From positions 3,660,001-3,724,000 of the forward strand of contig CM075995.1 of the NCBI GenBank assembly GCA_038087875.1: DNA of 64,000 nucleotides, given 5' to 3'. Shown piece after piece: positions 2,331-55,220 of this stretch. Within the stretch, counting starts at the first letter, position 1. Every line of letters starts with the position of its first letter. A program made the position numbers and the translations under genes. The notes under the pieces are model-generated. The model saw only the letters and a list, made by a program, of their open reading frames with translations. It did no database searches and was not told the origin of the DNA. Source of the DNA: Malacoraja senta. Its lineage: Eukaryota.

Positions 2331-3590
2331 AAGGTTTCGAGGATGTAACTAGTAGAGTGTATAAGGGAGAACCAGTGGATGTGTTATATCTGGACTTTCA
2401 GAAGGCTTTCGACAAAGTCCCACATAAGAGATTAGTATACAACCTTAAAGCACACGGTATTGGGGGTTCAGTATTGATGTGGATAGAGAACTGGCTGGCA
2501 GACAGGAAGCAAAGAGTAGGAGTTAACGGGTCCTTTTCAGAATGGCAGGCAGTGACTAGTGGGGTACCGCAAGGCTCAGTGCTGGGACCCCAGCTATTTA
2601 CAATATATATTAATGATTTGGACGAGGGAATTGAATGCAACATCTCCAAGTTTGAGGATGACACGAAGCTGGTGGGCAGTGTTAGCTGTGAGGAGGATGC
2701 TAGGAGGCTGCAATATGACTTGGATAGGCTGGGTGAGTGGGCAAATGCATGGCAGATGCAGTATAATGTGAATAAATGTGAGGTTATCCACTTTGGTAGC
2801 AAAAACAGGAAAGTAGACTAATACCTGAATGGTGGCCGATTAGGAAAAGGGGAGAGGCAACGAGACCTGGGTGTCATGGTACACCAGTCATTGAAAGTAG
2901 GCATGCAGTTGCAGCAGGCAGTGAAGAAAGCGAATGGTATGTTAGCATTCATAGCAAAAGGATTTGAGTATAGGAGCAGGGAGGTTCTACTGCAGTTGTA
3001 CAGGGTCTTGTTGAGACCACACCTGGAGTATTGCGTACAGTTTTGGTCTCCTAATCTGAGGAAGGACATTCTTGCCATAGAGGGAGTACAGAGAAGGATC
3101 ACCAGACTGATTCCTGGGATGTCAGGACTTTCATATGAAGAAAGACTGGATAGACTTGGCTTGTACTCGCTAGAATTTAGAAGATTGAGGGGGGATCTTA
3201 TAGAAACTTACAACATTTTTAAGGGGTTGGACAGGCTAGATGCAGGAAGACTGTTCCCGATGTTGGGGAAGTCCAGAAGAAGGGGTCACAGTTTAAGGAT
3301 AATGGGGAAATCTTTTAGGACTGAGATGAGAAAAACATTTTTTACACAGAGAGTGGTGAATCTCTGGAATTCTCTGCCACAGAATATAGTTGAGGCCAGT
3401 TCATTGGCTATATTTAAGAGGGAGTTAGATGTGGCCCTTGTGGCTAAAGGGATCAGGGGGTATGGAGAGAAAGCAGGTACAGGATACTGAGTTGGATGAT
3501 CAGCCATGATCATATTGGATGGTGGTGCAGGCTCGAAGGGCCGAATAGCCTACTCCTGCACCTATTTTCTATGTTTCTATGTTTCTATGT
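2331..3590 (+). mobile_element. CR1/HER1 LINE, 5'-truncated, RT domain with an in-frame stop
   Basis: ORFs 2324-2821 and 2876-3490 contain [28 protein letters not shown](E)DDTK and the CR1 C-terminus, followed by a (TTTCTATG)n tail. Confidence 0.95.
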
Positions 3591-5119: not shown

Positions 5120-6650
5120 TGAATCAAGAGTTAATATTGGAATGTCGCAAAGGTAATGCCACTGTGGTTATGGGAGATTTCAAGATGCAGGTAGACTGTG
5201 TAAATCAGGTTGGTACTGGACCCCAAGAAAGGGAGTTTGTGGAGTGCCTCCAAGATGGATTCTTAGAGCAGCTCGTACTGGAGCCTACCAGGGAGAAGGC
5301 AATTCTGGATTTAGTGTTGTGTAATGAACCAGATTTGATAAGGGAACTCAAGGTAAAGGAGCCATTAGGGGGTAGTGACCATAATATGATAAGTTTTAAT
5401 CTACAATTTGAGAGGGAGAAGGGAAAATCGGAAGGGTCAGTATTACAGTTGGGCAAAGGGGAGTATGGAGGCACGAGGGAGGAGCTGGCCAAAGTTGACT
5501 GGAAAGAGACTCTAGCAGGGGTGACAGTGGAACAACAATGGCAGGTATTTCTGGGAATAATACAGAAGGTGCAGGATCAGTTCATTCCAATGAGGAAGAA
5601 AGATTCTTAGGGGTGTAAGAGGCAACCATGGCTGACAAGGGAAGTCAAGAACAGTATAAAAAATAATAGAGAATAAGTATAACAAAGCAAAGATGAGCGG
5701 GAAGCCAGAGGATTGGGAAACTTTTAAAGAGCAACAAAAGATAACTAAGAAGGCAATACGGGGAGAAAAGATGAGGTACATGTGTGAAGAGGAAAAAAAT
5801 AGTTAAGACAAATGTGAGTCCCTTGAAGACAGAAACAGAAACATGTATTGTGGGGTAACAAGGAAATGGCAGACGAGTTGAACAGGAACTTTGGATCTGA
5901 CTTCACTTCTAAGGAAGACACAATCTCCCAGATGTACTAGTGGCCAGAGGACCTAGGGTGACGGAGGAACTCAGGGAAATTCACATTAGGCAGGAAATAG
6001 TGTTGGGTAGACTGATGGGACTGAAAGTTGACAAATCCCCAGGGCCTGATAGTCTGCATCCCAGGATACTTAAGGAGGTGGCACTAGAAATCGTGGACGC
6101 ATTGATGATCATTTTCCAATGTTCTATAGATTCAGGATCAGTTCCTGTGGATTGGAGGGTAGCTAATGTTATCCCACTTTTTAAGAAAGGAGGGAGAGAA
6201 AACAGGGAATTATAGACCAGTTAGCCTGACATCGGTGGTGGGGAAGATGCAAGAGTCAATAATAAAAGATGAAATAGCGGCACATTTAAATAACAGTAAC
6301 AGGATCGGTCCGATTCAGCATGGATTTACGAAGGGGAAATCGTGCTTGACTAATCTTCTGGAATTATTTGAGGATGTAACTGGGAAAATGGACAAGGGAG
6401 AGCCAGTGATGTCGTGTACCTGGACTTTCAGAAAGCCTTTGATAAACCACATTAGTGGGCAAAGTTAGGGCACATGGTATTTGGGGTAGGGAATAGACAA
6501 GGATAGAGAATTGGTTGGCAGACAGGAAACAAAGAGTAGGGATTAATTGGTCCTTTTCAGAATTGTAGGCAGTGACGAGTGGGGTGCCGCAAGGCTCGGT
6601 GCTGGGACCGCAGCTATTTACAATATACATTAATGATTTAGATGCAAGGA
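5120..6650 (+). mobile_element. CR1 LINE ORF2 (endonuclease C-part to RT), left arm, interrupted by DIRS copy 1
   Basis: Motifs [50 protein letters not shown] and INDLD, with frameshifts. Confidence 0.95.
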
Positions 6651-8179
6651 TTTTACTTCGGAGTCACGTGAGTGATTCCGTGAAGAACCCGGCAGTCCGC
6701 ATGCGTGTCATTACGACTGACGCATGGCGCAACGACCGGCTGGCAGGCACGTTGCTCCTCCCAGCGGGAAGTTTAAACCTGCAGGTAAGTTTTAAACTTA
6801 TTTCCAGGTTCTGTTTTTTCTTGCAAGAAACTCTTCTTACAGAGTTCTTCCTGCTGGATGATTTCGGGGCGAAGTCCGGACGGGCCGCGCGGAAACCGGT
6901 TATGGACCGTGGGGAATCCTGGTCCGGTCCACGGGTAGCCGGCGGCCGTCGGGTTCGCTACCTAAGTCACTAACAATGGGGTCAGCGGCTCCCAGACCGC
7001 AGTGGTTCCCCAGAACGGGGGTAAAGCCAAGGGTAAGTCGGTCTCGCCACCCGAGTCGCTGACAATGGGGTCAGCGGCTCCCAGACCGCTATGGTGCCCC
7101 AGAAAAGGGGTAAAACCAGGAGTAAGTCGGTCAGGCCTTTGGACTCGGACGAGTCGAGCCAGGAGGCTTCCCTCCTTCAATGGATAGCGTCTGCGGACAT
7201 CTAAACCCACATGGACCACCTGATGGAGAAGTTGCTCCACAATGATATACTCCAAAGGAGGGAGTTATCAGCGCGGGTCTCCTCAGGGCCCGCGGCAGCG
7301 GCACCTGTTTCAGGGCTGCACAATGTCTCCCTCTCTGAGGAGGGGAGCATTAGGGGTCAGTTCCTGTCTGACTCAGAGCAAAAATCCTGATATAGGTCCG
7401 TAGGAGGGGCCATAACAGCGCAGATATCCTCAGGGGCCTGCGGCAGCACCTGTTTCAGGGCTGGCTACGAATCTCACTCTCAGTGGAGGGGAGTGCGAGT
7501 GGTCAGTGTGTAACTGACTTCAAATTCAAAAGTATGTCCGCGGAACATACTGGAGCACATGCATATGGCTCCAAGGAAATACTCGCAAATGAAGGGGTTA
7601 CTGCCGGAAGAGTTGGTTATAGCCGTTGGCAGAAAACCCGGAAGGGGCCAGAGTTCCCCTCATGCTACAAGTGCCATTGGAGGCATGAAATCCAGGAAAT
7701 GAAACCAGCCGCCGAATCTTCTCTTCAGGTAAGACTTATCCAACAGGTATACTGGATGAGGAAGCAAAAGCTGTCGGCCTAATCAAGGTACACCCCACGC
7801 CTCATTGGCAGTAAGCAGTTCACTGAAGCTGGTGGCAGCTTGAAAGCTGGGCAGAGGTCTTTCAGGCCAAGGTCCAAGCCGGCCTCAGGAAATATGGAAT
7901 CCACACATCCTACCAGTCCTACTCTCCAATCAAGGACGGGAATAGAACCCACATCAGGGGCCTTTGGGCTTACCATAAGACCACCGGTAACCATGGAGGT
8001 AGGTGGGTCTAGTTCTTCCGAAACATGTGGTATGTGGACCATTTACAAGTTGCTAATATTTACACTTGTTTTTTGTAATGTTAACATGAGATTCAGATCC
8101 GTTTATAAACCAAAATGATAACATGTGATTGGTTTATTTTGCACAGTATACAAGGGTTCCAAGCATGGCTTGGAATTGG

Positions 8180-8458: not shown

Positions 8459-9960
8459 GATGGAGGATGTCGGTTCATCCTTGATTTAACTTTCATGTGC
8501 AACATAGATGTTTCAGAATATGGAACTTCGTTACTGTTAAACAACTGATTTCCATTCTCAGGGATCACCGGAGACATTTGAAATTTATCTGGATGCAACA
8601 ATGATAACAGTTAAAGGGTTGCAAAATGGGCTAACTTCAGCTCCCAGGTTATTTACCAAATTACTAAACGGTGCTTGGACTGCCAAAAGCTCAAAAACAC
8701 TTGTTCTGGCTTAACTGGATGATATTCTAAACGCTGTATTTTGCTAAAATCAACTGTTTCAGCCGCAAACTATAATTGAGAAATTGAGGTTCCTCATCCA
8801 TCCAGTTAAATTTAAGTTGATACCAACTAGCGTTATTGATTATTGGGATTTACCTTTAATTATTAATTTGTCTGTGACTCCACCCTGGGGCAAGAGATTG
8901 GAAACAATAGAAGCCTGTATGAAGCAGCCTTCTATTCATCAAGTGTAATTGGCAATTAGCAGCTGTGTTTCAGCAGTGCAAATTGGATCACCAATGTAAA
9001 GCACTTTGGCCAACGAGAGTTGTTTTTTAAATGTGCTATATAAATAAAAGTGACTTGACTTGACTAGATAGCTTGAAAATCTGCAAAAACCTGCAATGTT
9101 AACCATTTTTCTTTTCAAAAACCTTTGCATTATCAGAACTTACAACGTGCAAAGTAGTAACCTCACAGGTGCCATGTAGGTCATTGTTAACAGACCTATG
9201 CTATTAGCAGCTGAAGCTACCAAAGTCACAATGGTGGACGACCAGTATTCAGCATTGCTCCAGTAGGTTTTGGTCACTAAATCTTCAGTTATATTACAAA
9301 CTGATGCTAGTGCTCAAAGATGGAAAATTACGAATGCCATCTCTAGTCACGGAGGCAGATGGGATTTGCATGAGTTACCAATTCCTCAGTTATTGTTATC
9401 AACTACCTATAGACACTATGTGCATTCTATGGGTTAAAGGGTTATTGTGCAAATATGCATAATTTGCATGCTCAATTCCAAGTTGATACACTGCGGTGGT
9501 GGCAAGTCAAAGTATCCTGTCATATTTACCTAACCTCATTTGGCGCTGGTGTATCATCACGTAAAATCAATAACAACACAGAATGGATGTTGGATCACAA
9601 AGTATTTTTTGACATTATGGCTCGATGGAACACCAAATATCGATATGTTTGTATCCAGGCTCATTCACCGGTTGCAAAAATATGTGGTTCACAGTGACGA
9701 GAGATACATTCTCGCTACACGGGGAGGAATGTTCTTTTATGTCTTTTCTCCATTTTGCCTCATCAGTTAGGTCTTGCAATAAATTCAGCAAGTTCCGCTT
9801 CAGGGTTTTCGTACTGTCTGACTGGCCTATGCAGCCATGGTTCCTGCTTATGTTGGGAATATAATAGAACCTTATATGGTTATTCTAAACATAAAACTTT
9901 GCTGGATCAGCCTGTGACTCAGGAAACCAGCCCCTGCATGATAAAATCAATTCATTAGCT
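8459..9960 (+). pseudogene. DIRS RT / RNase H / methyltransferase-like ORF remnants
   Basis: DGGCRFILDL, NGLTSAPRLFTKL, LA*LDDIL (YLDD disrupted), LQTDASAQRW, PNIDMFVSR, FYVFSPFCLI and DWPMQPWF. Many stops and frameshifts. Confidence 0.88.
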
Positions 9961-10039: not shown

Positions 10040-10930
10040 TAGCACCAAAAAATCAGTACATTTCCTCTTCAGGAGATTTATTTAACATATAAATACTATG
10101 TTACATATACTACGGCACGGATTACTGATGTCTTCTAGTTCATTTCAAATAGGTCCTTGACAATAAATTAAGTTATAAAGCCATTAACTATGCCCAACGT
10201 GCCTTCTCATCATATTTGCTGCAGCGAGCGGGACCCACTCTGTCGGGTCTCACCCTCTGATATCCAGTTTATAAAGGATATCTTTAATACAAGTTCTCCC
10301 AGGGCAAAGCACACGGAAGTATGGGATATTGACATTGTGTTAACACTACTTCACCAGGGGGCTCCAGCTACATCCTTATCTTTAGCCGGCTCTCATAAGG
10401 TAGTTATCCTCAGGGCGCTGGTCTCAGCGCAACGGGTCCAGTCACTACATAAATTGCAACTGGACAGGATGGTTACACCTGCAAATAATATATATTTTAC
10501 GTTTATGATTTAGTTAAGTAGAGCAGCCCAGGGGCGTCAGGTCTCAAACTGGTTCTCATGGCATACCCCATGGACCTTCGGTTATGTGTTGTCACACATT
10601 TACAACAATATGTCATGGTCACCTAGAGCCTTAGAGGCTCTGATACTAGCAATATTTGTTAGTTACGAAAAAACTCATAAGAAGGTATCAGTTCAGACCA
10701 TCTCCAGGTGGTTAAAACGGGGTTTTGGCTTATGCAGGAGTAGATACTAATATCTTCTAATCTCACTCCACCAGGGCTGCTACAACATCAGCAGCAAGGG
10801 TTATGTACGTTCCGCTGGACCACATCCTAGCGACTGCATGATGGTCTAACGAACAAGCTTTCCAAACATTTTATAATAACCCATAGCCAGACCGGGGGTA
10901 TTTGCCAACTCTATTTTAGTTTCTATTTTA
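10040..10930 (+). pseudogene. DIRS tyrosine recombinase remnant
   Basis: VWDIDIVL, VSAQRVQSLHKL (catalytic R), QTISRWLK, HSTRAATTSAA, W-SNEQAFQTFY (catalytic Y). Confidence 0.9.
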
Positions 10931-11441
10931 TAGTTTCTCCCAGATGAGAGGGGTTACTATTATTATTATTTGTTCATTAAATAGCATCAGCATGTTTTAA
11001 ATCCATGTCATGTCTGTATGCATTATCGATGTTTCCCTTATCTGTGGTCAACTGATGCTGTTGTGTTTGTGTGGACTTTTCCGGGGCATGAAATCACAGA
11101 GCTTTGAAATCTTCACGGAATCACTCACGTGACTCCGAAGTAAAATAGTAAGATTAAATGAGAACTTACCAGTTTGAAGTTTGATCTTTATTTTATGAGG
11201 AGTTGCAATGAGCGATTGCATGCCCTCCGCTCCCAACCTTCGTATCATAAAGGTCATCTGGTAGTTCTAGTCTTCTCTAATCTTACAATGTCACTTCAAC
11301 TAGTTATCTGTGATTTCACACCGCTGCTTTGAAGATTGACGCGCATGCGGACTGGCGGGCTCTTCACATAATCGCTCATCGTAACTCCTCATAAAATAAA
11401 GATCAAACTTCAAACTGGTAAGTTCTCATTTAATCTTACTA

Positions 11442-11576
11442 TTAAAAGTAACATTAGCAAATTTGCAGATGACTCAAAGCTGGGTGGCAGTGAACTGTGA
11501 GAACATTCTTGCTATTGAAGGAGTGCAGCGTAGGTTCACGAGGTTAATTCCCGGGATGGTGGGACTGCCATATGGT
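11442..11576 (+). mobile_element. CR1 right arm, continuing 5120-6650, internally deleted
   Basis: Reads KSNISKFADDSKLGGS, then jumps to ILAIEGVQRRFTRLIPGM. Confidence 0.85.
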
Positions 11577-11577
11577 T

Positions 11578-11668
11578 AAACATAGAAAATAGGTGCAGGA
11601 GGAGGCCATTTGGCCCTTCGAGCCTGCACTGCCATTCATTGTGTTCATGGCTGATCATCCGCAATTGG
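11578..11668 (-). mobile_element. CR1 3' tail at the 3' end of the Keno-U2 chimera
   Basis: Reverse complement of the CR1 3' UTR, ending CACCTATTTTCTATG. Confidence 0.8.
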
Positions 11669-12014
11669 TAACCCCACTGTCTTCTCTTCAGACCGACGTC
11701 ACCCCGATTGTGGCGACTTCATTCGCAGAGCTGGCAATTGTGACTTTGAACGATTTGTCTGCAAGCTTTTTCTCCTGCCCGGATGTTTCCGTGCATTTGG
11801 ATTGAAATGAGAGCAGCACCTCCTCTAGTCCCCTTAAGGAATCCACTGGTGAAATAAATGAAGGAAAAGCATTTTATGCTCTATGATCTTTGGTCTATGA
11901 TCTTTGATCACACACATGCATAGACACAGAGTGAGAGAGGGCAGCAGGCAGACACGCTTGCGTGTGGAGGAATTTTTGTCCTTTCTTTTCAACTTTGAAA
12001 ATTTCCCAAAAGAG

Positions 12015-12169
12015 AGGTGCACCATTCCCAGAGGTACTGCAATACCAGGTCGATGCATGGAGTGGACGGAGCAAGCCCCTATTCCATCTCCCTGTTCCAA
12101 AAATCAGTTTGATATATGGTTCCTAGATAAGGGATGTATCGGATATGACAAGAACTGATAAGAACAGAT
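12015..12169 (-). pseudogene. RNU2: U2 snRNA fragment, nt ~38 to the 3' end, lacking the 5' 37 nt
   Basis: Minus strand reads ATCTGTTCTTATCAGTT...GATTTTTGGAACAGGGAGATGGAATAGGGGCTTGCTCCGTCCACTCCATGCATCGACCTGGTATTGCAGTACCTCTGGGAATGGTGCACC. This matches vertebrate U2, including the Sm site and the two 3' stem-loops. Confidence 0.95.
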
Positions 12170-13685
12170 TTTTATTTTAAAAAATTTCAAAATATACTTT
12201 ATTCAGGTAAAAATATTTACAATACATAGCACTGTTACAAAATTTTGAGATTTTAAAAATAAAGTCTGCAATTTATCCCATCAGATAAAGCATAAAAAGA
12301 AGTTTAATTTGACACCTAATTCACTTTCATATCTTCAGTATTAAAGAAGTTATGGCCATTTTCATACTCGGAAATTAGCATCTTGTTCCCTATTGCTTTT
12401 CCATTGACTTAACACAAAAGCTGTGATCGAGGACAGTTAAAAGCCCATAACTTTCTTAAAAATTAAGAGAACTGAAAGAAATGTTCAGTTATTATAGATT
12501 GAAGCATTCTGAAACAAATATGAAACAATCTTACTTAGAAGACATGAAAGTAAAGCATATAATTAGTTAGTTACCTAATTGTAGCTAATTACAAAATTCA
12601 ATTACTCGATCTAAACATCTATCAATTTCTTAAGGATAGATTAACATTTTTAAATAGCCTAAGTGTCCAAATAACATTCACACAATAATTCACAATATAA
12701 CAATTTTTAAATCTCATTTTCATGAATTTACAGGCCAAATGGAAGGAATTGAATGTTTAATACCTGTAAATTAATGGGGATTTAAATCATCTTGTGAGTG
12801 AGGATTTCTGGAACGCGATCTTTTGGAACGTTCATTTGCGGTGAATTTAACCCCGAATTGGCATGAAAAATACTGCCGTTAATTCGGGGAATAAAATCAC
12901 CGTGTCGCATGAAAAAATGTGAATTAAAGGCTTCTTAAGAAGCACTTTTATACATTTAAAGAAACCACTTTTGTTTACCTGTCCCGTGTGTGAAATCCGT
13001 CCCCGTTATCGGCGTTGACGCTTCAGGAGCTGATTTTAAAATTACTCCAGCGCTGACATTGACGATTTAATAAAAATAAAAAATACACAAAAGGCCACTA
13101 GGAACGATTATTCAGCCAACGCTTGTACTCCAACAAAATATTAACCAGGACAAGGGAGGAGAAACCCGCGTTTTAACCCCGCCCCCCCTTAAAGGCGCCA
13201 AAATCGCGCACACGGCCAGTGGCAGAATTACAGCACGACTGAAGGTAAGTTTTGTAACATACCTACAATACATGAACTGGGTAAAAAATTCATACGACAT
13301 TTTCGGAGGCTATACAAACGTTCAATACTGTTTACACACATTGCACAAATTACACAAATTTAGCCCCCACCCTTGCCACTCATGTGGCCCACTGGCATGG
13401 AATCCCTTCCCTTATTTTTGAGGGGTGTCTCCACCACACCCTGCTCCCCCATGTCCAGCAGCGGAAGGACCCTATACTGTGGTCCTCCCCCACCGAGGCT
13501 TGGTGTTGGCTGCACCAAGCTTCAGTACGTCCCTCAGCACGTACTCCTGCAGTCTGCAGCGGGCCAGTCGGCAACGTTCCCCGACGGACATCTCGCTCCG
13601 CTAGGTGGTCAACAAAGCTCAGGCAGATCAAACAGCGTCTTTCACGGAGTTGATAACCTTCCAGCAGCACTCGATGTCAGTGGAA
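12170..13685 (-). mobile_element. Tx1-clade (Keno-like, U2-targeting) non-LTR retrotransposon, 3' portion
   Basis: 13685-13472 translates as TDIECCWKVINSVKDAV*SA*ALLTT*RSEMSVGERCRLARCRLQEYVLRDVLKLGAANTKPRWGRTTV*. The 3' UTR has AATAAA and an A-rich tail joined to U2 nt 38/39. The UTR is interrupted by the element at 12227-13265. Confidence 0.8.
12227..13265. mobile_element. ~1.04-kb non-autonomous TIR DNA transposon with a 7-bp TSD, copy 1
   Basis: Imperfect 16-bp TIRs TAGCACTGTTACAAAA and TTTTGTAACATACCTA. TSD CAATACA at 12220-12226 and 13266-13272. Homologous along its whole length to 30650-31690. Confidence 0.9.
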
Positions 13686-14631
13686 CACTCGATGTGATAT
13701 AGCACTCGCTGCTGGAAGCACTCGATGTGATATCCACCCGATTGTGGAAGATCAGCCATGATCACATTGAATGTCAGTGCTGGCTCGAATGGCCTACTCC
13801 TGCACCTATTATCTATTGTCAATTATCTACAAAGATAAAATGTAGTCGGAGACCGCAAGACTGGTAGGAGGACTGCGAAGGGGGAGGGGATGGAAACTGG
13901 GAAGGGGGAGGGGATGGAGGATAGTGAGATTGGTGTGGGGTATACTAATATGCATTAGAAACATCCGTGTGGAGTCAAAATGAAAGGGAGTGTCTCCTAA
14001 CAGCTAGATTGCAACCACAGAGGGGAGAGCTCGGACTGTAAAACCTACAAAGATCGTGACATAGGAAAGCCACTGGAGTCTTAAAGTCTGGACACAATTG
14101 TTTTTAATTGCTGATCAATTTAATCTTGGTTCATTTACTGATTCTGAACCAAGTCAGCCCTTGTAAAATGTGTCTTCATTTCATGCAAATCACCCCCTTC
14201 ATTTTGCCGAGGAAAGCAACAGTAGTGTAGCAGCAACCAATGCTGCTGAAGACTCTGTCATACCTCACCTAGCGTACTCAGCGGGTCTGGGAGCTTCTCT
14301 GAAGAGAAGGAATGGGTGATGTTTTGGGTTGAGACAGTCTGAAGAAGGGTTTATCCATTCCTCTCCAGAGATGCTGCCTGTCCCACTGAGTTAGTCCAGC
14401 ATTTTCCATCTATCTTTGGTGTAAACCAGTACCTGCAGTTCCTTCTTACACATTACTCACCTAGAGTATTGTCCGATTCACCTCTGCTCCATTGCGGACA
14501 TTGGACTTCAAATCCAAGATGGCGCCCAACCCAGGCAACACGTTGTGTGTTAGTCACAGAAATGGATACACAATCACGCATTTCAATCGCTCCACTCTTT
14601 CAAATCTCTACTCCTGCAGCAACATTTCTTA

Positions 14632-20399: not shown

Positions 20400-21040
20400 G
20401 AAATATAGAAACATAGAACCATAGAAAATAGGTGCAGGAGGAGGCCATTCGGCCCTTCGAGCCAGCACCACCATTCATTGTGATCATGGCTGATCGTCCC
20501 CAATCAATAGCCCTTGCCTGCCTTCTCCGCATATCCCTTGATTCCACTAGCCCCTAGAGCTCTATCTAACTCTCTCTTAAATCCATCCAGTGAATTGGCC
20601 TCCACTGCCCTCAGTGGCAGGGAATTCCATAAATTCACAACTCTCTGGGTGAAAACGTTTTTTCTCACCTCAGTCTTAAATGGCCTCCTCTTTATTCTAA
20701 GACTGTGGCCCCTGGTTCTGGACTCGCCCAACATTGGGTACATTTTTCCTACATCTAGCTTGTCCAGTCCTTTTATAATTTTATATGTTTCTATAAGATT
20801 CCCCCTCATCCTTCTAAACTCCAGTGAATACAAGCCTAGTCTTTTCAATCTTTCCTCATATGACAGTCCCGCCATCCCCGGGATCAATCTCGTGAACCTA
20901 CGCTGCACTGCCTCAATCACAAGGATGTCCTTCCTCAAATTAGGAGACCAAAACTGTACACAATACTCCAGATATGGTCTCACCAGAGCCCGATACAACT
21001 GCAGAAGAACCTCTCTACTCCTATACTGAAATCCTCTTGT
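20400..21040 (-). mobile_element. CR1 LINE 3' fragment
   Basis: ORF 20504-20998 reads YRALVRPYLEYCVQFWSP...FTQRVVNLWNSLP, followed by the CR1 tail. Confidence 0.93.
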
Positions 21041-24795: not shown

Positions 24796-26027
24796 ATTCT
24801 AAAAAGCTGGAGCTACGCAGCGGGTCAGGCAGCATTGCTGGAGAAAAGGAATAGGTAACTGAAGGTGGGTCTCGACAAGAAACGTCACTTATTCCTTTTC
24901 TCCAGAGATGCTGCCTGACCCGCTGAGTTACTCCAGCTTTTCTGTGTCTGTATTCTTCTAATATGCTACTGGTGTTGGTTACGGACAGATACAGCTCATC
25001 ATATTCTGAACGTCCATACATTCATATCTGTCAGCTCAGTCAGGAGAAAAACATAACTGTTTTTCTTTGACAACTTGGAATCCACTGTCAGAAACAGAAT
25101 GATTGATTATTTCGAGAAATTTGCAATGATTAGAGTTGCCGGCATGGATTTGTAAATGATCGGCCACGAATAATGAATCTAAATGGATGCTTGAGGAAGT
25201 AACCTAAATAGAATTCAGGATTTAGTTTTAGATCGGATGGAGTCCCAGAAGGTTGCAGATAGGGGACTGTAAGCATTCAGAATGAATGTAAGTAACTATT
25301 AGTGTTCCACGAGGCTTTCTGCGATGGTCTCATATATATTCATTATATCTATTAATGATTTTCTAAGCATCAAAAGAGAGATATGTATCTTCATTGCTAA
25401 TGAATCAGATATTTTGCAGATGAAAATAAGCCAAATAAGGGAAAGCAGGAGAGACCAGTAAATAAAGACTCATACATTAAATCTGGGCATTCAATTTTGG
25501 GAGACATGTTTTTAATAGTAAGATTAAACGAGAACTTACCTAAGTTTGAAGTTTGATCTTTATTTTATGAGGAGTTACGTAGGTGATTACGTGAAGAACC
25601 CCGCCAGTGCGCCTGCGCGTCAATCTTCAAAGCAGCGGTGTGAAATCACAAAAAACAACAACCGAAGTAATATAGTCTCATAATAAAACGAGTAATACAA
25701 GAACTTCCATCTGACCGTTATGATAGAGGGTAGGGTCGTGGTGGGCACGTAATCACCTACGTAACTCCTCATAAAATAAAGATCAAACTTCAAACTTAGG
25801 TAAGTTCTCGTTTAATCTTACTATTTTACTTCGGAGTCACGTGAGTGACTACGTGAAGATTTTAAAGCTTTGTGATTTCATGCCGTGGATCAATCCCGGC
25901 TTCTCACTGCATAGATTGACTCGGAACGAGAATAATCAATCATGCATTCATAATAACATTTGTACCACAAATGCAGTATTTCATTTCAATAATGAAATGA
26001 ATCAGATCCCCTTTAAACCAGAGGAAT

Positions 26028-26940
26028 TTACACAGAACTTAAAATAGTTTCTGCAAACAACCCCGCATTAACAATAGGCCGATGGTAAAAATGTTGAAAC
26101 ATCAACTCATTGGACCACCCGGCGGCTGCGAGGATATGGTCGACGGGGCCGTCTTTTGCCCTGGCCGCCGACGTTTCTGCTGCCCTAGCCGAGTGAGACG
26201 TAAAAACATAAGTGTTAATACCAGCAGCTGTTAAGACTTCTTTTATCCATCTGGAAATAGTCTGTATTGAAACTCTCTTGTGTGGTTTCTTGTGTGTGAT
26301 CAACAACCCAGTTTCCGTATTCTCAAATTCTTTGTGACCTCAATGTATTGTAATAAATATGTCTTAATACAGAGACATGGATCATTTGGATATGCTGCTA
26401 GCATAATTTTAAATCCTGTCACACCTGGCCTAATTTACTTTAGTAGGTCATAGATATAGAATGTAACCTTGTCTTCAGTTACTTCCATACTGTCTATTTG
26501 TAATTTTCCAAGTGTTTGCACTCGTTGTGCTGTCACTCATGCCATAAGCATGAATACTTTCATACTGAGCTTGACCAAAGGTAAAGACACACTTGATGAC
26601 CATTCACGAAGTAGTTTCAGTACCACACTTACATCCCAGATTGTCACGTACCTAGGTTTCGGTGGTTTGGAATTAAAGATTCCTTTCATTAGTCTGGAAA
26701 CAATTGGGTGTGACCCAATTGAGTTTCTTTCTGAATCCAGAACCAAATATGAGGACAATGCACTTCTGGCTGAATTAATTGCACTACAACTCAGACCTTC
26801 ATCATAATAAAGTTTTGACAGAAATTCTAAACATTTGAAATATCTGCAGTACTTTATTGCACATTCTTTTGTACACAGAACTCTTCCCATTTCTTAATAT
26901 AAGAAAGGTACTGTTTTTGAGTGCTCTTCCTCCCGGCTGC
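26028..26940 (-). pseudogene. DIRS tyrosine recombinase remnant
   Basis: SAINSARSALS, GIFNSKPPKPRYVTIWDV, QTISRWIK, HSARAAETSAA and AAGWSNELMFQHFYHRPI. Confidence 0.92.
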
Positions 26941-28745: not shown

Positions 28746-30649
28746 CCAGTTAGTATGTTCCCCTGAGAACCAGGTCCACCTACCTCTTGAGTCATTTGAG
28801 TATTTTGAGATCCCTGGATTCTCCCGGAAGCACAACCACTTGTCCTTACTCCCGCTGCAGGCCGCCAGCTACGTCCCTGCGTTGATGAGCGACTTGGTCC
28901 TGGTCTAGGATCCGTATGACGTCTGAAAGGATACTTCCTCTTTACAGACTTTGCAACCATTGATGTATTTATCAATCCTGTTTTCGCTTCATCTTCCAAC
29001 TCTTTAATACGTCTCCCGAGATCTCTCCAAAGAGTAAGTTGGGTAATTGTATATTACTTGGTTTGCAGAGTGCTGCGAATTTCGGATTCATAGTAGACCG
29101 TATCGCACTTTCCTCAGATAATTGATCTCGAAGTGGGTGCTGCATAGCAACCCCAGTGCTTGCTGATGCAACTTCGTCATCTTTTGGTTGTTACCTGCTA
29201 TTCTGGTAAAAGCAGTTATTCCAGAACCCAGCAGCTTTAATATTCTCTGCAACTGATTCCAGATAATTTGATTCACTGCTGCTGCTTTCAGCAACCCACA
29301 GTTACTTCTTGCAGTCTCATCCATTTCCTGCTGTTCCAGCTAATGGTAAACCAAGTAATTTATTAAGGAGGCCAGTTCTTCTCCTAATGGCTCTCCTGAC
29401 CCTGACGGGGCAGTGAATCCTACTGCCAGGGGTGGAACATCTGGCAGCTGCCATTCATCGCCTTGTACAGCCTCACCGTCAGAATCGGGGTCTGAAATCT
29501 CATGACCCGTAGCACGCTCCTCATTCCTGAGGGTGCATTCCATCAGCCCTGAGCCAGGTGCTGTTAAGCTGCTCCTGCAGCTTGGATTACAGTACACTCC
29601 TTCCTGAGTGAACTTTGCTCCAACAGCCTATGAAAAAGGCTTTCTATTTGGGCAATACGCTCGAAAGCAGTATCTAGCCCTGTACCAGGAGCTGTTTGAG
29701 CTGTTTCCAGCAGCTTGGCTTTCAGAACACTCCTCTCTGAGTGAACTTTGCTCCAACAGCCTATGTAAAAGGCTTTCTATTTGGGCAATACGCTCGAAAG
29801 CAGTATCTAGCCCTGGAGCTACTTCCATTGCCTGGGACTCCCTCCGTTGGGATTTAAACTTTGTCTTTTGCCCGACAGGCGCTGACTGTGTTTTCACCAG
29901 CCCCAGGTCCACAGTCGCTATGCTCACCGCTGGTGACTGTACCGGGGTTTAGAGGCGGTTGGTCTCTAACCGCGGACTCCCGACTTTCCCGACTTCTGTC
30001 GGCTGTGTCGCTCGCCTCTTCCCCCTGTCCGTTTTTTTCCATGGCGTCTATGGAAAAAATCCCCATAGACCCACAGTAAACGGACCTGGAAAACCTGAAA
30101 AAAGTTTTTACTTACCTTGTAGTTGAAAAACTACAAACCACTCGAGGAGCACTGCTCCTCACGTCCGTTTGCGTCAAAGCGTCTGACGTAATGACGCGCA
30201 GGCGCACTGGCGGGGTTCTTCACGTAGTCACTCACGTGACTCCGAAGTAAAACACAGGTTAGTGTGTCAAGGTCATTTTGGATCAAAATAAGATCAATCT
30301 GAGTATTTCTTTAATGGTTAAAAGCTTGAAATACTGGGGATGCCAGGACAAAGGCACCAAAATATACCAGTCATAGGGTCATAGTGTCATACAGTCTTAC
30401 AATGCGGAAAAGTATCATAGAGTCATAGAGTGAAACAGTGTGGAAAAAGGCCCTTCAGCCCAACATGCCCACGCCGGCCAACATCTGCACTAGTCCCACC
30501 TGCCTACATTTAGCCCATATCTCTCCAAATCTGTCTTATCCATGTACCTGTCTGAATGTTTCTTAAATGTTGCGAAAGTACCTGCCTCATCTATCTCCTC
30601 TGGCAGCTCAATCCATACACCTACCATGATATGATGTTATATCAATGAG

Positions 30650-31690
30650 TAGCAATGTTACAAAATTTTGAGATTTAAAAAATCAAGTCTGCAATTTATC
30701 ACATCAGATAAAGATAAAAAGAAGTTTAATTTGACACCTAATTCACTTTCATATCTTTAGTATTAAAAAAGTTATGGCCATTTTCATACTCGGAAATTAG
30801 CATCTTGCTTTTCCATTAACTTAACACAAAAGCTGTGATCGAGGACAGTCAAAAGCCCATAACTTTCCTAAAAATTAAGAGAACTAAAAGAAAATTTCAG
30901 TTATTATAGATTGAAGCATTGAAACAAATATGAAACAATCTTACTTGGATAACCTGAAATTAAAGCATATAATTAGTTAGTTACCTAATTGTAGCTAATT
31001 ACAAAATTCAATTACTAGATCTAAACATCTATCCATTTCTTAAGAAAAGATTAACATTTTTAAATAGCCCAAGTGCCCAATTAACATTCACACAAGAATT
31101 CACAATATAACATGATTTTTAAATCTCATTGTCATGAATTTATAGGCCAAATGGAAGGAATTTAATGTTTAATTCCCGTAAATTAATGGCCATTTAAATC
31201 ATCTTGCTAGTGTTTTTTTGTGGAACGCAATCGATTGGAACGTTGCGGTTTGCGTTGAATTTGAACCCCATATTGGCAGGAAAAACACTGCCGGTTTGTA
31301 TGGGGCCAAAATCACATTTTCGCCAATGAAATTTTGATTAAAGTCATCCTAAGAAGCAAGTTTATATGTGAAATAAACGACTTGCTTTATGTTTTGTCCC
31401 GTACATGAGATCCGTCCCGTCGTCGGCATTGACGGCATCAGAAGTAGCTTTTTTATTTGACACCAGTGATTAAATTGTCCCGCGATTTTTTTTTTAAACG
31501 TCCGAGAACGGAAGTCGGAAAGATTTTTCAGCATCAGGTAGTAGCCCGAGAAAATATATCTTGGACAGGCAGGAGAAAATGGCATTTTAATCTCGCCCCC
31601 ACCCCCCTCCCCCTCAAAGGTGCCAAGGTTGCGCACACGGCCAGTGGCGGAACTGCAGCGCCGCTGAAGGTAAGAATTGTAACATACCTA
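30650..31690. mobile_element. ~1.04-kb non-autonomous TIR DNA transposon with a 7-bp TSD, copy 2
   Basis: Termini TAGCAATGTTACAA and TTGTAACATACCTA. TSD CAATGAG at 30643-30649 and 31691-31697. Confidence 0.9.
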
Positions 31691-32026
31691 CAATGAGATG
31701 ATCTGGTTTTTGTGATTCAGGTGAGAGACAATAGACAATAGACAATAGACAATAGACAATAGGTGCAGGAGTAGGCCATTCGGCCCTTCGAGCCAGCACC
31801 GCCATTCAATGTGATCATGGCTGATCATCCCCAATCAGTACCCCGTTCCTGCCTTCTCCCCATATGCTGTGACTCCGCTATTTTTAAGAGCCCTATCTAG
31901 CTCTCTCTTGATAGCATCCAGAGAACCTGAGATCCAGAGAGGTTGTTTTTTATTGGGCAAGGAGGATAATTGCTCCTCTCCTTCAAGATCTTTTACATCA
32001 AGCTGAGAGATTAGAAATGCCATCAC

Positions 32027-53072: not shown

Positions 53073-54370
53073 GTCGTGCCTGATCATCAAGGCTCAGCAG
53101 GTGAGGAAGGAGCTGAGCAGACTCTGCCCAGGCAAAGCCATGGGTCCCATTGGTGTCAGCCCTAGGGAACTCAAGACATGTACCAGCCAGTTGTGTGGAG
53201 TACTCCAGCATATCTTCAACCTGAGCCTGAGCCTGGAGAGGTTTCCGGTGATGTGGAAGACATCCTGCCTGGTTCCTGTACCAAAGAGGATGCGCCCCAG
53301 CTCCTCCAATGACTACAGACTGACTTCAAACATCATGAAGCTCCCTGGAGAGGCTGGTGCTCACTCACCTGCGACACCTTGTTAAACCCTACCTTGTCCC
53401 CCTACAGCTCGCTTACCAAACAAAGATGGGAGTTGAGGACGCCATCATCCACCTGCTCCATCGTTGACATTTGATGCAGAGACAACAACCTGGCTGCTCA
53501 ACACGCAGCTTGAGATCTAACTATTCCTTTGGTTTATGTTTCATTCACAAGAAGAAGTCCATCGTTCCTATGTTCACCTGGATAAGCCGGGAAGTATTGT
53601 GAGAGTCATGTTTTTTTACTTCTCCAGTGCTTTTAACACCATCCGGCCTGCACTGCTGGGGATGCTCCATTGGTCTCCTGGATCACCAACTGGACAACCA
53701 CAACATATCAGGCTATAGAACGGTGTCTCGGACGTGAGCAACACAGGGCTCCCCCAGGGGATGGTCCTCTCTCTCTCTCCCTTCCTGTTCACCATCTGCA
53801 CCTCGGACTTCAGATATAACTCAGACTCCTGCCACCTGCAGACGTTTTCAGATGACTTTGCAATTGTGGGCTGTATAAGTGAGGGGAGGGAAGCTGAATG
53901 CAGAGGTGTAGTCAACGACTTTGTTGAGTGGTGTGGGCTGAATCACCTGCAACTCTACACCAACAAGACTAAGGAGTTAATGGTGGACATTAGGAGGATA
54001 GGAACACCCCTGTCTCCATCAATGGTGCGGATGTTCGGTTTACCACGGAGTACAATTACCTTGGACTTTACCTGGACAGGAAACTGGAATGGTCCAGGAA
54101 CGCTGAGGCCCTGTACAAGAAGGGACAGAGCTGGCTGTATATTTTTAGAAAGCTTCACGCCTTCAATGTCTGCATTTAGATGCTGCAGATGTTCTACCAA
54201 TCGGTGGTAGCCAGTGCCATCTTCTTCGCTGCCATGTGCTGGTGTAGCAGAGCGAAGGCCGTGGATGCCAAGAGGATTAGCAAACACATCAGGCAGGCTG
54301 GCTCCATCCTGGGGGCAGGGTTGGATTCATAGGGTGTAGTCTAGGAGGGGAGGATGCTCCTCAAACTCCA
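53073..54370 (+). mobile_element. Rex1/Babar LINE RT remnant
   Basis: GKAMGPIGV, HIFNLSL, WKTSCLVPVPK, NDYR, FSSAFNTI, TGLPQGMVLS and LQTFSDD. Confidence 0.88.
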
Positions 54371-54374
54371 GACT

Positions 54375-55220
54375 CTTGAGAGCAGCCAGTGGATTGGCCT
54401 CCACTGCCTTCTGTGGTAGAAAATTCCACAAATTCACAACTCTCTGGGTGAAAAAAAGTGTTTCCTCATCCCAGTCCTAAATGGCCTACCCCTCATTCTG
54501 AAACTGTGACCCCTGGTTCTGGACTCCCCCAACATCGAGAACATTTTTCCTGCATTTAGCAGAATAAGGGGCAGGCTATTTAGAGCTGAGTTGAGGAAAA
54601 ACTTTTGCACCCAGAGAGTTGTGAATCTGTGGAATTCTCTGCCACTGGAGAATTCACTGGATGTTTCACTGGATGTTTTCAAGAGAGATTTAGCTCTTGG
54701 GGCTAAAGGAATCAAGGGATTATGGGGAAAAAGTAGGAACGGGGTACTGATTTTAGATGATGAGTCATGATCATATCGAATGTCGATGCTGGCTCGAAGG
54801 TCTGATTGGCCTACTCCTGGCACCCCTTCATCCATTTTACTTGTCACAACCTCAAAAACGTCCAGAAGATTAGTCAAGCATGATTTCCCTTTCATAAATC
54901 CATGTTGACTTGGACTAATCCTTTTACTGCTATCCAAATGCCCCATTATTACCTCTTTAATAATTGACTCCAGCATCTTTCCCACCACCGGTCAGGCTAA
55001 CTGGTCTGTAATTCCCTGTTTTCTCTCTCGCTCCTTTCTTGAAAAGTGGGATAACGTTAGCGATCCTCCAATGCACAGGAACTGATCCTGAATCGATCGA
55101 ACATTGGAAAATAATCACCAATGCGTCCGCTATTTCTAGAGCCATCTCCCTGAGGACCCTGGGATGCAGACCATCAGGCCCAGGGGATTTATCATCCTTC
55201 AGTCCCATTAGCCTACCCAT
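54375..55220. mobile_element. CR1 mosaic with alternating orientations
   Basis: Minus-strand 3' piece at 54375-54560, plus-strand 3' piece at 54562-54820, and minus-strand KSPGPDG...QHGF piece at 54820-55220. Confidence 0.85.

Follow-up and report, generated by a model that had tools for sequence, protein, structure and literature searches.

The window, that is, the whole 64,000-nucleotide stretch of Malacoraja senta DNA that was analysed, contains a composite of retrotransposon and snRNA pieces whose layout is real and whose every part is of a known kind (Table 1). Read 5' to 3' on the minus strand, the end of a Tx1-clade ORF2 is followed by AATAAA and an A-rich tail, by U2 snRNA from nt 38 onward, by a flanking sequence and by the 3' end of a CR1 element. 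The four pieces share one orientation, are truncated on the 5' side and end at an intact CR1 terminus. A DNA transposon is nested in the Keno 3' UTR, and plus-strand CR1 sequence lies on both sides.

Table 1. Features of the composite and its CR1 surroundings, with the second copy of the nested transposon (positions in the window)
Feature	Position	Strand	Basis or detail
CR1 ORF2 piece, RT region (FADD motif), left part of presumed host	11441..11501	+	75% to 2630-2692
CR1 ORF2 piece, cut at 11576	11502..11576	+	76% to 3063-3137; profile 6 to ~82
CR1 3' end (tail A), ~116 bp	11578..11693	-	profile 403-520, 95.7 bits
Non-repeat sequence directly after U2, ~320 bp	11694..12014	-	no second copy in window
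3'-box-like motif, 2 mismatches	11980..11993	-	starts ~20 nt past U2
U2 snRNA, nt 38 to end, decayed	12015..12169	-	Rfam RF00004, 97.6 bits
Distal Keno-type 3' UTR: right target-duplication copy (12226-12220), AATAAA (12203-12198), A/T-rich tail	12170..12226	-	
Non-autonomous DNA transposon, 1,039 bp	12227..13265	-	self-comparison, termini, target duplication
Proximal Keno-type 3' UTR with left target-duplication copy (13272-13266)	13266..13471	-	
Tx1-type ORF2 end (very likely Keno), last 69 codons and stop, 5'-truncated	13472..13681	-	translation, relatives
58-bp junction scar	13682..13739	.	direct and inverted copies of adjacent Keno end
CR1 3' UTR and tail (tail B)	13740..13830	+	profile 432-519; 83/90 identical to copy at 31738
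Second transposon copy, 1,041 bp	30650..31690	-	own, different 7-bp target duplication

The ORF2 end, the U2 remainder and the nested transposon

Keno elements are U2-specific non-LTR retrotransposons of the Tx1 clade with an APE-type endonuclease, represented by KenoDr1 and Keno-1_SSa (PMC4640811; PMC4494074; PMC6136364). The original prediction of a Tx1-type ORF2 C-terminus is borne out over positions 13681 to 13472, where the translated remnant is 81% identical to protein P0002 and shares 57 of 69 residues with P0012, a protein of 1,138 aa in which Pfam recognizes the domains Exo_endo_phos (APE), RVT_1 and zf-RVT. P0012 belongs to the 90% cluster of the best protein match, which also includes a protein named as Leucoraja erinacea. 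Three in-frame stops interrupt the remnant, at codons 18, 21 and 27. The APE and RT domains of a Keno element are present by proxy only, in P0012, the window itself holding 69 codons; Pfam recognized nothing meaningful in ORF pieces of the window itself, which has no other Keno ORF sequence.

An alignment of 15 relatives was used to fetch at least 80 metagenome loci and 78 genome-bin loci (158 together). Among these listed loci, two show an AATAAA/A-tail joined to U2 nt 38, namely L001, the best match, and L093; in both, U2 5' sequence lies upstream and a further snRNA gene is close by. In a FastTree tree that kept 66 of 113 rows (locus ORFs below 1,000 aa, loci after L120 and six near-duplicates were dropped), P0012 falls within an 11-row clade (SH-like 99) alongside L001, with its U2 nt 38 junction, and L002, which has a U2 5' piece upstream; L093 lies outside this clade, and the other eight rows have no assigned target. 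The grouping with L001 and L002, together with the U2 nt 38 junction itself, makes a Keno-type origin of the ORF2 remnant very likely. Viral contigs yielded no relatives of P0012 and 0 matches to a 19-nt junction motif. L001 (74-99, 5807, 6549-6665, 8698-8723) is a Keno with a full ORF2 in an apparent tandem U2-U5 array and makes a useful comparator.

The U2 remainder begins where it had been placed, at nt 38/39, and runs to the end of the snRNA, as its Rfam score and a numbering based on the intact U2 of L083, in which the same motif starts at nt 38, both confirm. It is the only Rfam match in the window, the first 37 model positions of the alignment being forced onto the A-tail, and it carries a 4-nt insertion and several broken pairs. 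The reported absence of U2 nt 1-37 also stands: no ungapped match of at least 22 of 37 positions occurs on either strand of the whole window, and the 5' side of the locus lacks both this part and the promoter of an original gene. A scan with consensus PSE and octamer motifs gave 20 loose PSE-like matches across the window, none of them close to the junction, which amounts to background level, and one octamer at 14190 that is one of four on that strand. The nt 38 site, the Tx1/APE relative and the clade shared with the U2-inserted L001 support the view that the junction formed at a real U2 gene. The insertion site near nt 37-38 that had been given for Keno and Utopia agrees with the published position at nt 38/39, which is common to both (PMC4640811; PMC6136364).

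Between the ORF2 end and U2, the AATAAA and the A-rich tail of the 3' UTR are as first described, in a distal layout that matches the U2 junctions of L001 and L093, but the extent is not: the Keno UTR measures only about 260 bp, because 12227-13265 are a DNA transposon. Self-comparison paired 12227-13280 with 30650-31706, and both copies are bounded by inverted repeats, imperfect and about 16 bp long, that begin with TAG. An exact 7-bp duplication flanks each copy (2/2), no other length from 3 to 11 fitting either. Over 1,021 aligned bases the copies agree at 848, with 71% identity in the 5' half as against 95% in the 3' half; outside the element identity drops to about 40%, so that similarity ends at the termini as expected of a transposon at two independent sites. 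The longest stop-free frame is 62 aa, and the two target duplications have the same four final bases, a hint of target preference at n=2. The transposon is likely hAT-like, its TAG termini being of a kind that we take to be typical of hAT elements. With non-autonomous hAT-type elements it shares short terminal inverted repeats, a 7-bp duplication and the lack of coding capacity in a 1-kb insert, and Repbase holds hAT families with 7-bp target duplications (PMC4455052); on the other hand, 7 bp also falls in the range of Dada, whose target duplications are 6-7 bp long (PMC8869645).

The presumed U2 flank, the CR1 pieces and the junction scar

U2 passes without an A-tail into unique sequence, which is presumed to be the 3' flank of a U2 gene. 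In the original prediction this non-repeat stretch measured about 340 bp and the minus-strand CR1 tail behind it about 90 bp; both are present, and by profile the CR1 end measures about 116 bp, which leaves about 320 bp of flank. A 3'-box consensus has been described, with cleavage about 10 nt upstream of the box (PMC2582628). The 3'-box-like motif in the flank is a weak and late match, with a chance of 2.5% per 11-nt start window and a position beyond the roughly 10 nt of that description. A reading of the flank as CpG-rich was rejected, its observed/expected ratio of 0.59 being equalled or exceeded by 31% of 1,270 windows of the same size.

The flank has no match among the 158 fetched loci, and neither the flank nor its junction with CR1 has a second copy in the 64 kb. 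A search of sequencing runs with 33 sampled words of the flank (18 rows) gave one run at 0.82, which lends no independent support because it is possibly the source sample; 15 rows from eight other studies at 0.06-0.09 count as no evidence, and two rows at 0.00 from the study of the high-scoring run are no proof of absence. No RNA runs with flank words occur among the matches listed. The distal flank was also considered as a coding exon, with a pyrimidine tract plus AG and a 51-codon frame, and rejected for want of support: it had no match among 41 candidates, none in PDB sequences and no usable Atlas match, all of them weak blanks, and stop-free frames of at least 62 codons occur in 1,397 of 2,000 random 321-bp windows.

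The CR1 pieces were placed on a profile built from 10 CR1 copies in the window. Tail A finishes at the natural terminal repeat and is identical to the copy at 20405 at 80 of 88 bases. The flanking plus-strand CR1 is as had been noticed, the host stopping at 11576 and a plus-strand tail resuming, at 13740. Host piece and tail B stand in element order with about 350 bp missing between them; a plus-strand CR1 neighbour in such order is met at 8.7% of random points. Tail B may be what is left of the host or a short insertion of its own. The peptide of the host piece fits CR1 proteins that, at their C-termini, look like the copies closest to tail B, yet host piece and tail B are not thereby proven to be one element, because other CR1 copies in the window share the peptide. 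Furthermore, of the 21 CR1 tails in the window, 7 begin no earlier than profile position 390, and with short tails so common, A and B could have arrived independently of each other. Within the host, the piece at 11502 lies about 370 bp further along the element than the one at 11441 and is joined to it without any insert, which indicates that deletions alone occur here. No 6-mer is shared between the two outer boundaries, so no target duplication surrounds the unit as a whole.

In the scar between the Keno end and tail B, a stretch of 12 nt repeats the adjoining Keno sequence directly and one of 11 nt repeats it in inverted form. None of 5,000 random draws from the window reached 12 nt of direct match, and 5 of 5,000 reached 10 nt of inverted match. 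In this it resembles the scars that templated end-joining leaves. The scar shows that the truncation of Keno and its join to tail B are a repair-type event, and it is equally compatible with a deletion or with the insertion of tail B itself.

Several other arrangements were noted in the surrounding repeats. At 54362-54838 two CR1 pieces abut in opposite orientation (profile 178-371 minus, then 238-519 plus), an arrangement like that of a 5'-inverted insertion. Self-comparison also revealed a short element whose inverted repeats are 74 bp long (11144-11217 and 11370-11443). The stretches 10500-11447, 25510-26288 and 29000-30250 are likely remnants of DIRS-type elements, with a tyrosine-recombinase-like C-terminus recognized by eye; Pfam gave no match on two of the DIRS-like frames.

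Possible routes to the composite

The whole locus is likely the displaced fossil of a U2 gene broken by Keno, the joined pair having been copied in by the enzyme of a second retrotransposon. The best reading, which we hold at about even odds (roughly 0.5), is that read-through RNA of the Keno-disrupted U2 gene was reverse-transcribed by CR1 into another CR1 copy. Keno would first have entered a U2 gene at the usual position, as the observed junction suggests. Transcription would then have passed the polyA signal of Keno without stopping and gone on across U2 into some 320 nt of flank, a length within reach, given that in human U2 genes it terminates about 600 bp beyond the 3' box (PMC3874203). 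The CR1 reverse transcriptase would have primed on a CR1 3' end and, after about 116 nt, may have switched template onto the read-through RNA, which is rated slightly ahead as a one-event route; alternatively, the flank may have contained a CR1 tail from the start, so that the RNA ended in it. Template switching by CR1 has been proposed for a bird SINE (PMC5729268). Synthesis would have stopped 69 codons into ORF2, the scar may have formed by templated end-joining at this point, and about 350 bp of the host CR1 would have been lost then or later. At some stage a 1-kb DNA transposon also inserted into the Keno UTR.

Copying from read-through RNA is favoured because the single orientation, the intact CR1 terminus and the 5' truncation are as target-primed reverse transcription predicts, and because U2 is complete to its end and leads without an A-tail into unique sequence with a weak 3'-box-like motif. 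It is further favoured because U2 nt 1-37, Keno ORF sequence beyond the remnant and other snRNA genes are missing here, unlike at L001 and L093, and because plus-strand CR1 resumes in order, next to a host peptide compatible with tail B-like CR1 proteins. The displacement from a U2 locus claimed by the original prediction gains modest support from the lack of U2 5' sequence, other Keno pieces and other snRNA genes in the 64 kb, from the way tail A reaches its natural end where the plus-strand CR1 is cut, and from the in-order CR1; that the unit moved as one, we infer rather than observe. Against a read-through RNA stand the lack of a target duplication, the insert-free host gap, the abundance of short tails and the weak, late 3'-box match. 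The absent target duplication is not fatal to a chimera, because short duplications are found in only 72.5% of platypus U6-L2 chimeras (PMC4476161).

The same picture can arise from a template switch, from a CR1 tail resident in the flank, from capture of DNA or from decay in place with deletions. In a capture, repair of a DNA break would have brought in, by copying or by transfer, a piece of the Keno-disrupted U2 locus. One end could, for instance, have been engaged by strand invasion at similar CR1 sequence and the other sealed by templated end-joining; tail A would have been present beforehand in the host or in the source flank. The templated scar at one end and the missing target duplication suit such an event, and CR1 3' pieces, which make up 12.6% of the window, offer homology for it. 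Capture alone predicts neither the shared orientation nor the stop at the natural CR1 3' terminus; we regard it as unlikely, if the foremost of the alternatives. Next in rank, and likewise doubtful, is a Keno-killed U2 gene that decayed where it stood, receiving independent CR1 insertions and undergoing at least two deletions, through which the gene would have lost its promoter and U2 nt 1-37, Keno about 4 kb or more, and the flank its distal part. Such erosion is in keeping with a dense repeat region in which 42% of the window has a self match, with the insert-free host gap and the common short tails, and tail B with the scar could then be a CR1 that inserted into Keno. It would nevertheless have to remove U2 nt 1-37, Keno 5' sequence and other snRNA genes without trace from 64 kb, in which nearby PSE-like and octamer matches stay at background level, and it needs several events in addition to a chance in-order CR1 neighbour.

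Much less probable than any of these is a small non-autonomous composite family. Its master copy would be a U2 gene that Keno had broken and that had gained a CR1 tail in the flank; the U2 promoter would transcribe it and CR1 would mobilize it repeatedly. Tail A corresponds approximately to the CR1 3' UTR, the part that SINEs borrow, and stringent LINEs move RNAs that bear their tail (PMC4476161), but neither the flank nor its join to CR1 recurs in the 64 kb, a weak test of such a family. If true, cartilaginous fishes would have a multi-copy composite retroelement in which the target-site junction of one LINE clade, Tx1, is moved by another, CR1.

If read-through RNA was indeed copied, the locus would be a clean case of CR1 acting on unprocessed RNA from a Keno-disrupted U2 gene, and such genes would stay transcribed past the 3' box; for CR1, PMC4476161 found only a single incomplete chimera with an snRNA. 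The copy is likely inert, since a promoter, the U2 5' end and any intact ORF are lacking. It is probably a single dead copy and likely of little functional weight, and a multi-copy case alone would be of much specialist interest. Beyond this, the locus adds a likely skate member to Keno and a DNA transposon with 7-bp duplications.

Relation to known elements and U1-joined relatives

Like Keno, the locus meets U2 at nt 38/39 with its 3' end, behind AATAAA and an A-rich tail, and it has a close full-length relative with APE, RT and zf-RVT domains, P0012, in a clade with the U2-flanked L001. Unlike Keno, it retains 69 codons, lacks U2 nt 1-37 and the promoter, has its UTR split by a DNA transposon and lies among CR1 pieces instead of in a U2 array. 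Utopia uses the identical U2 target site with a restriction-like endonuclease, in contrast to the APE endonuclease of Keno (PMC4640811; PMC6136364), and was rejected as a label here, since the ORF relative P0012 carries an APE domain, which serves as a proxy for the window, and no restriction-like endonuclease was found.

As a whole, the locus is a small variant of the known LINE-snRNA chimeras. In platypus, 5'-truncated U6 is joined to short L2 ends, and a single turkey copy of U6 joined to CR1 could not be fully characterised (PMC4476161). What the present unit shares with the U6-L1, U6-L2 and U6-CR1 chimeras is a short LINE 3' end with an intact terminus, preceded in the same orientation by a foreign segment that would derive from RNA and is 5'-truncated; the unit differs in its foreign part, which would be an unprocessed read-through product (Keno end, U2 remainder and flank) in place of a mature snRNA, and in the missing duplication around the whole unit. 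SINEU, the many-copy crocodilian SINEs with a U1 or U2 head and a Tx1 tail (PMC4494074), likewise combine U2 sequence with retrotransposon ends, whereas the present unit has the 3' part of U2 inside it and a CR1 tail, and is seen once in 64 kb. A SINEU or other SINE was rejected because the U2 5' end, and with it an snRNA-derived 5' head, is absent. Among the open-access papers listed in searches, no title or beginning of an abstract describes a unit of Keno, U2, flank and CR1.

Among the 158 listed loci, seven show Tx1/L1-like ORFs followed by U1 snRNA from nt 3 (L005:6096, L013:2899, L078:2624, L083:4751, L086:7724, L089:8551 and L090:7764). Further U1-joined loci are L084 (a short piece), L070:3800 (U1 from nt 25) and L082:6013 (U1 from nt 36), and the A-tail junction with U1 was read directly in L005, L083, L084, L086 and L090. 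One assembly accounts for five of the U1-joined loci and a single contig for both L086 and L090, and several lie within U1-U2-5S arrays (20 of the 158 loci were scanned). In the FastTree tree most of them form one clade, in which L087 is labelled U1 without its 3' junction having been seen. These ORFs look like U1-targeting retrotransposons of Tx1 type. For U1, PMC4640811 (2015) lists only Dada-U1, and no earlier report of U1-targeting Tx1-type elements was found in passages of the open-access literature; these elements are possibly more novel than the Keno-U2-CR1 locus itself. Finally, L083-L090, L093, L096-L099 and others are contigs of bacterial bins that contain spliceosomal snRNA arrays or LINE-type ORFs and are likely animal or other eukaryote DNA.
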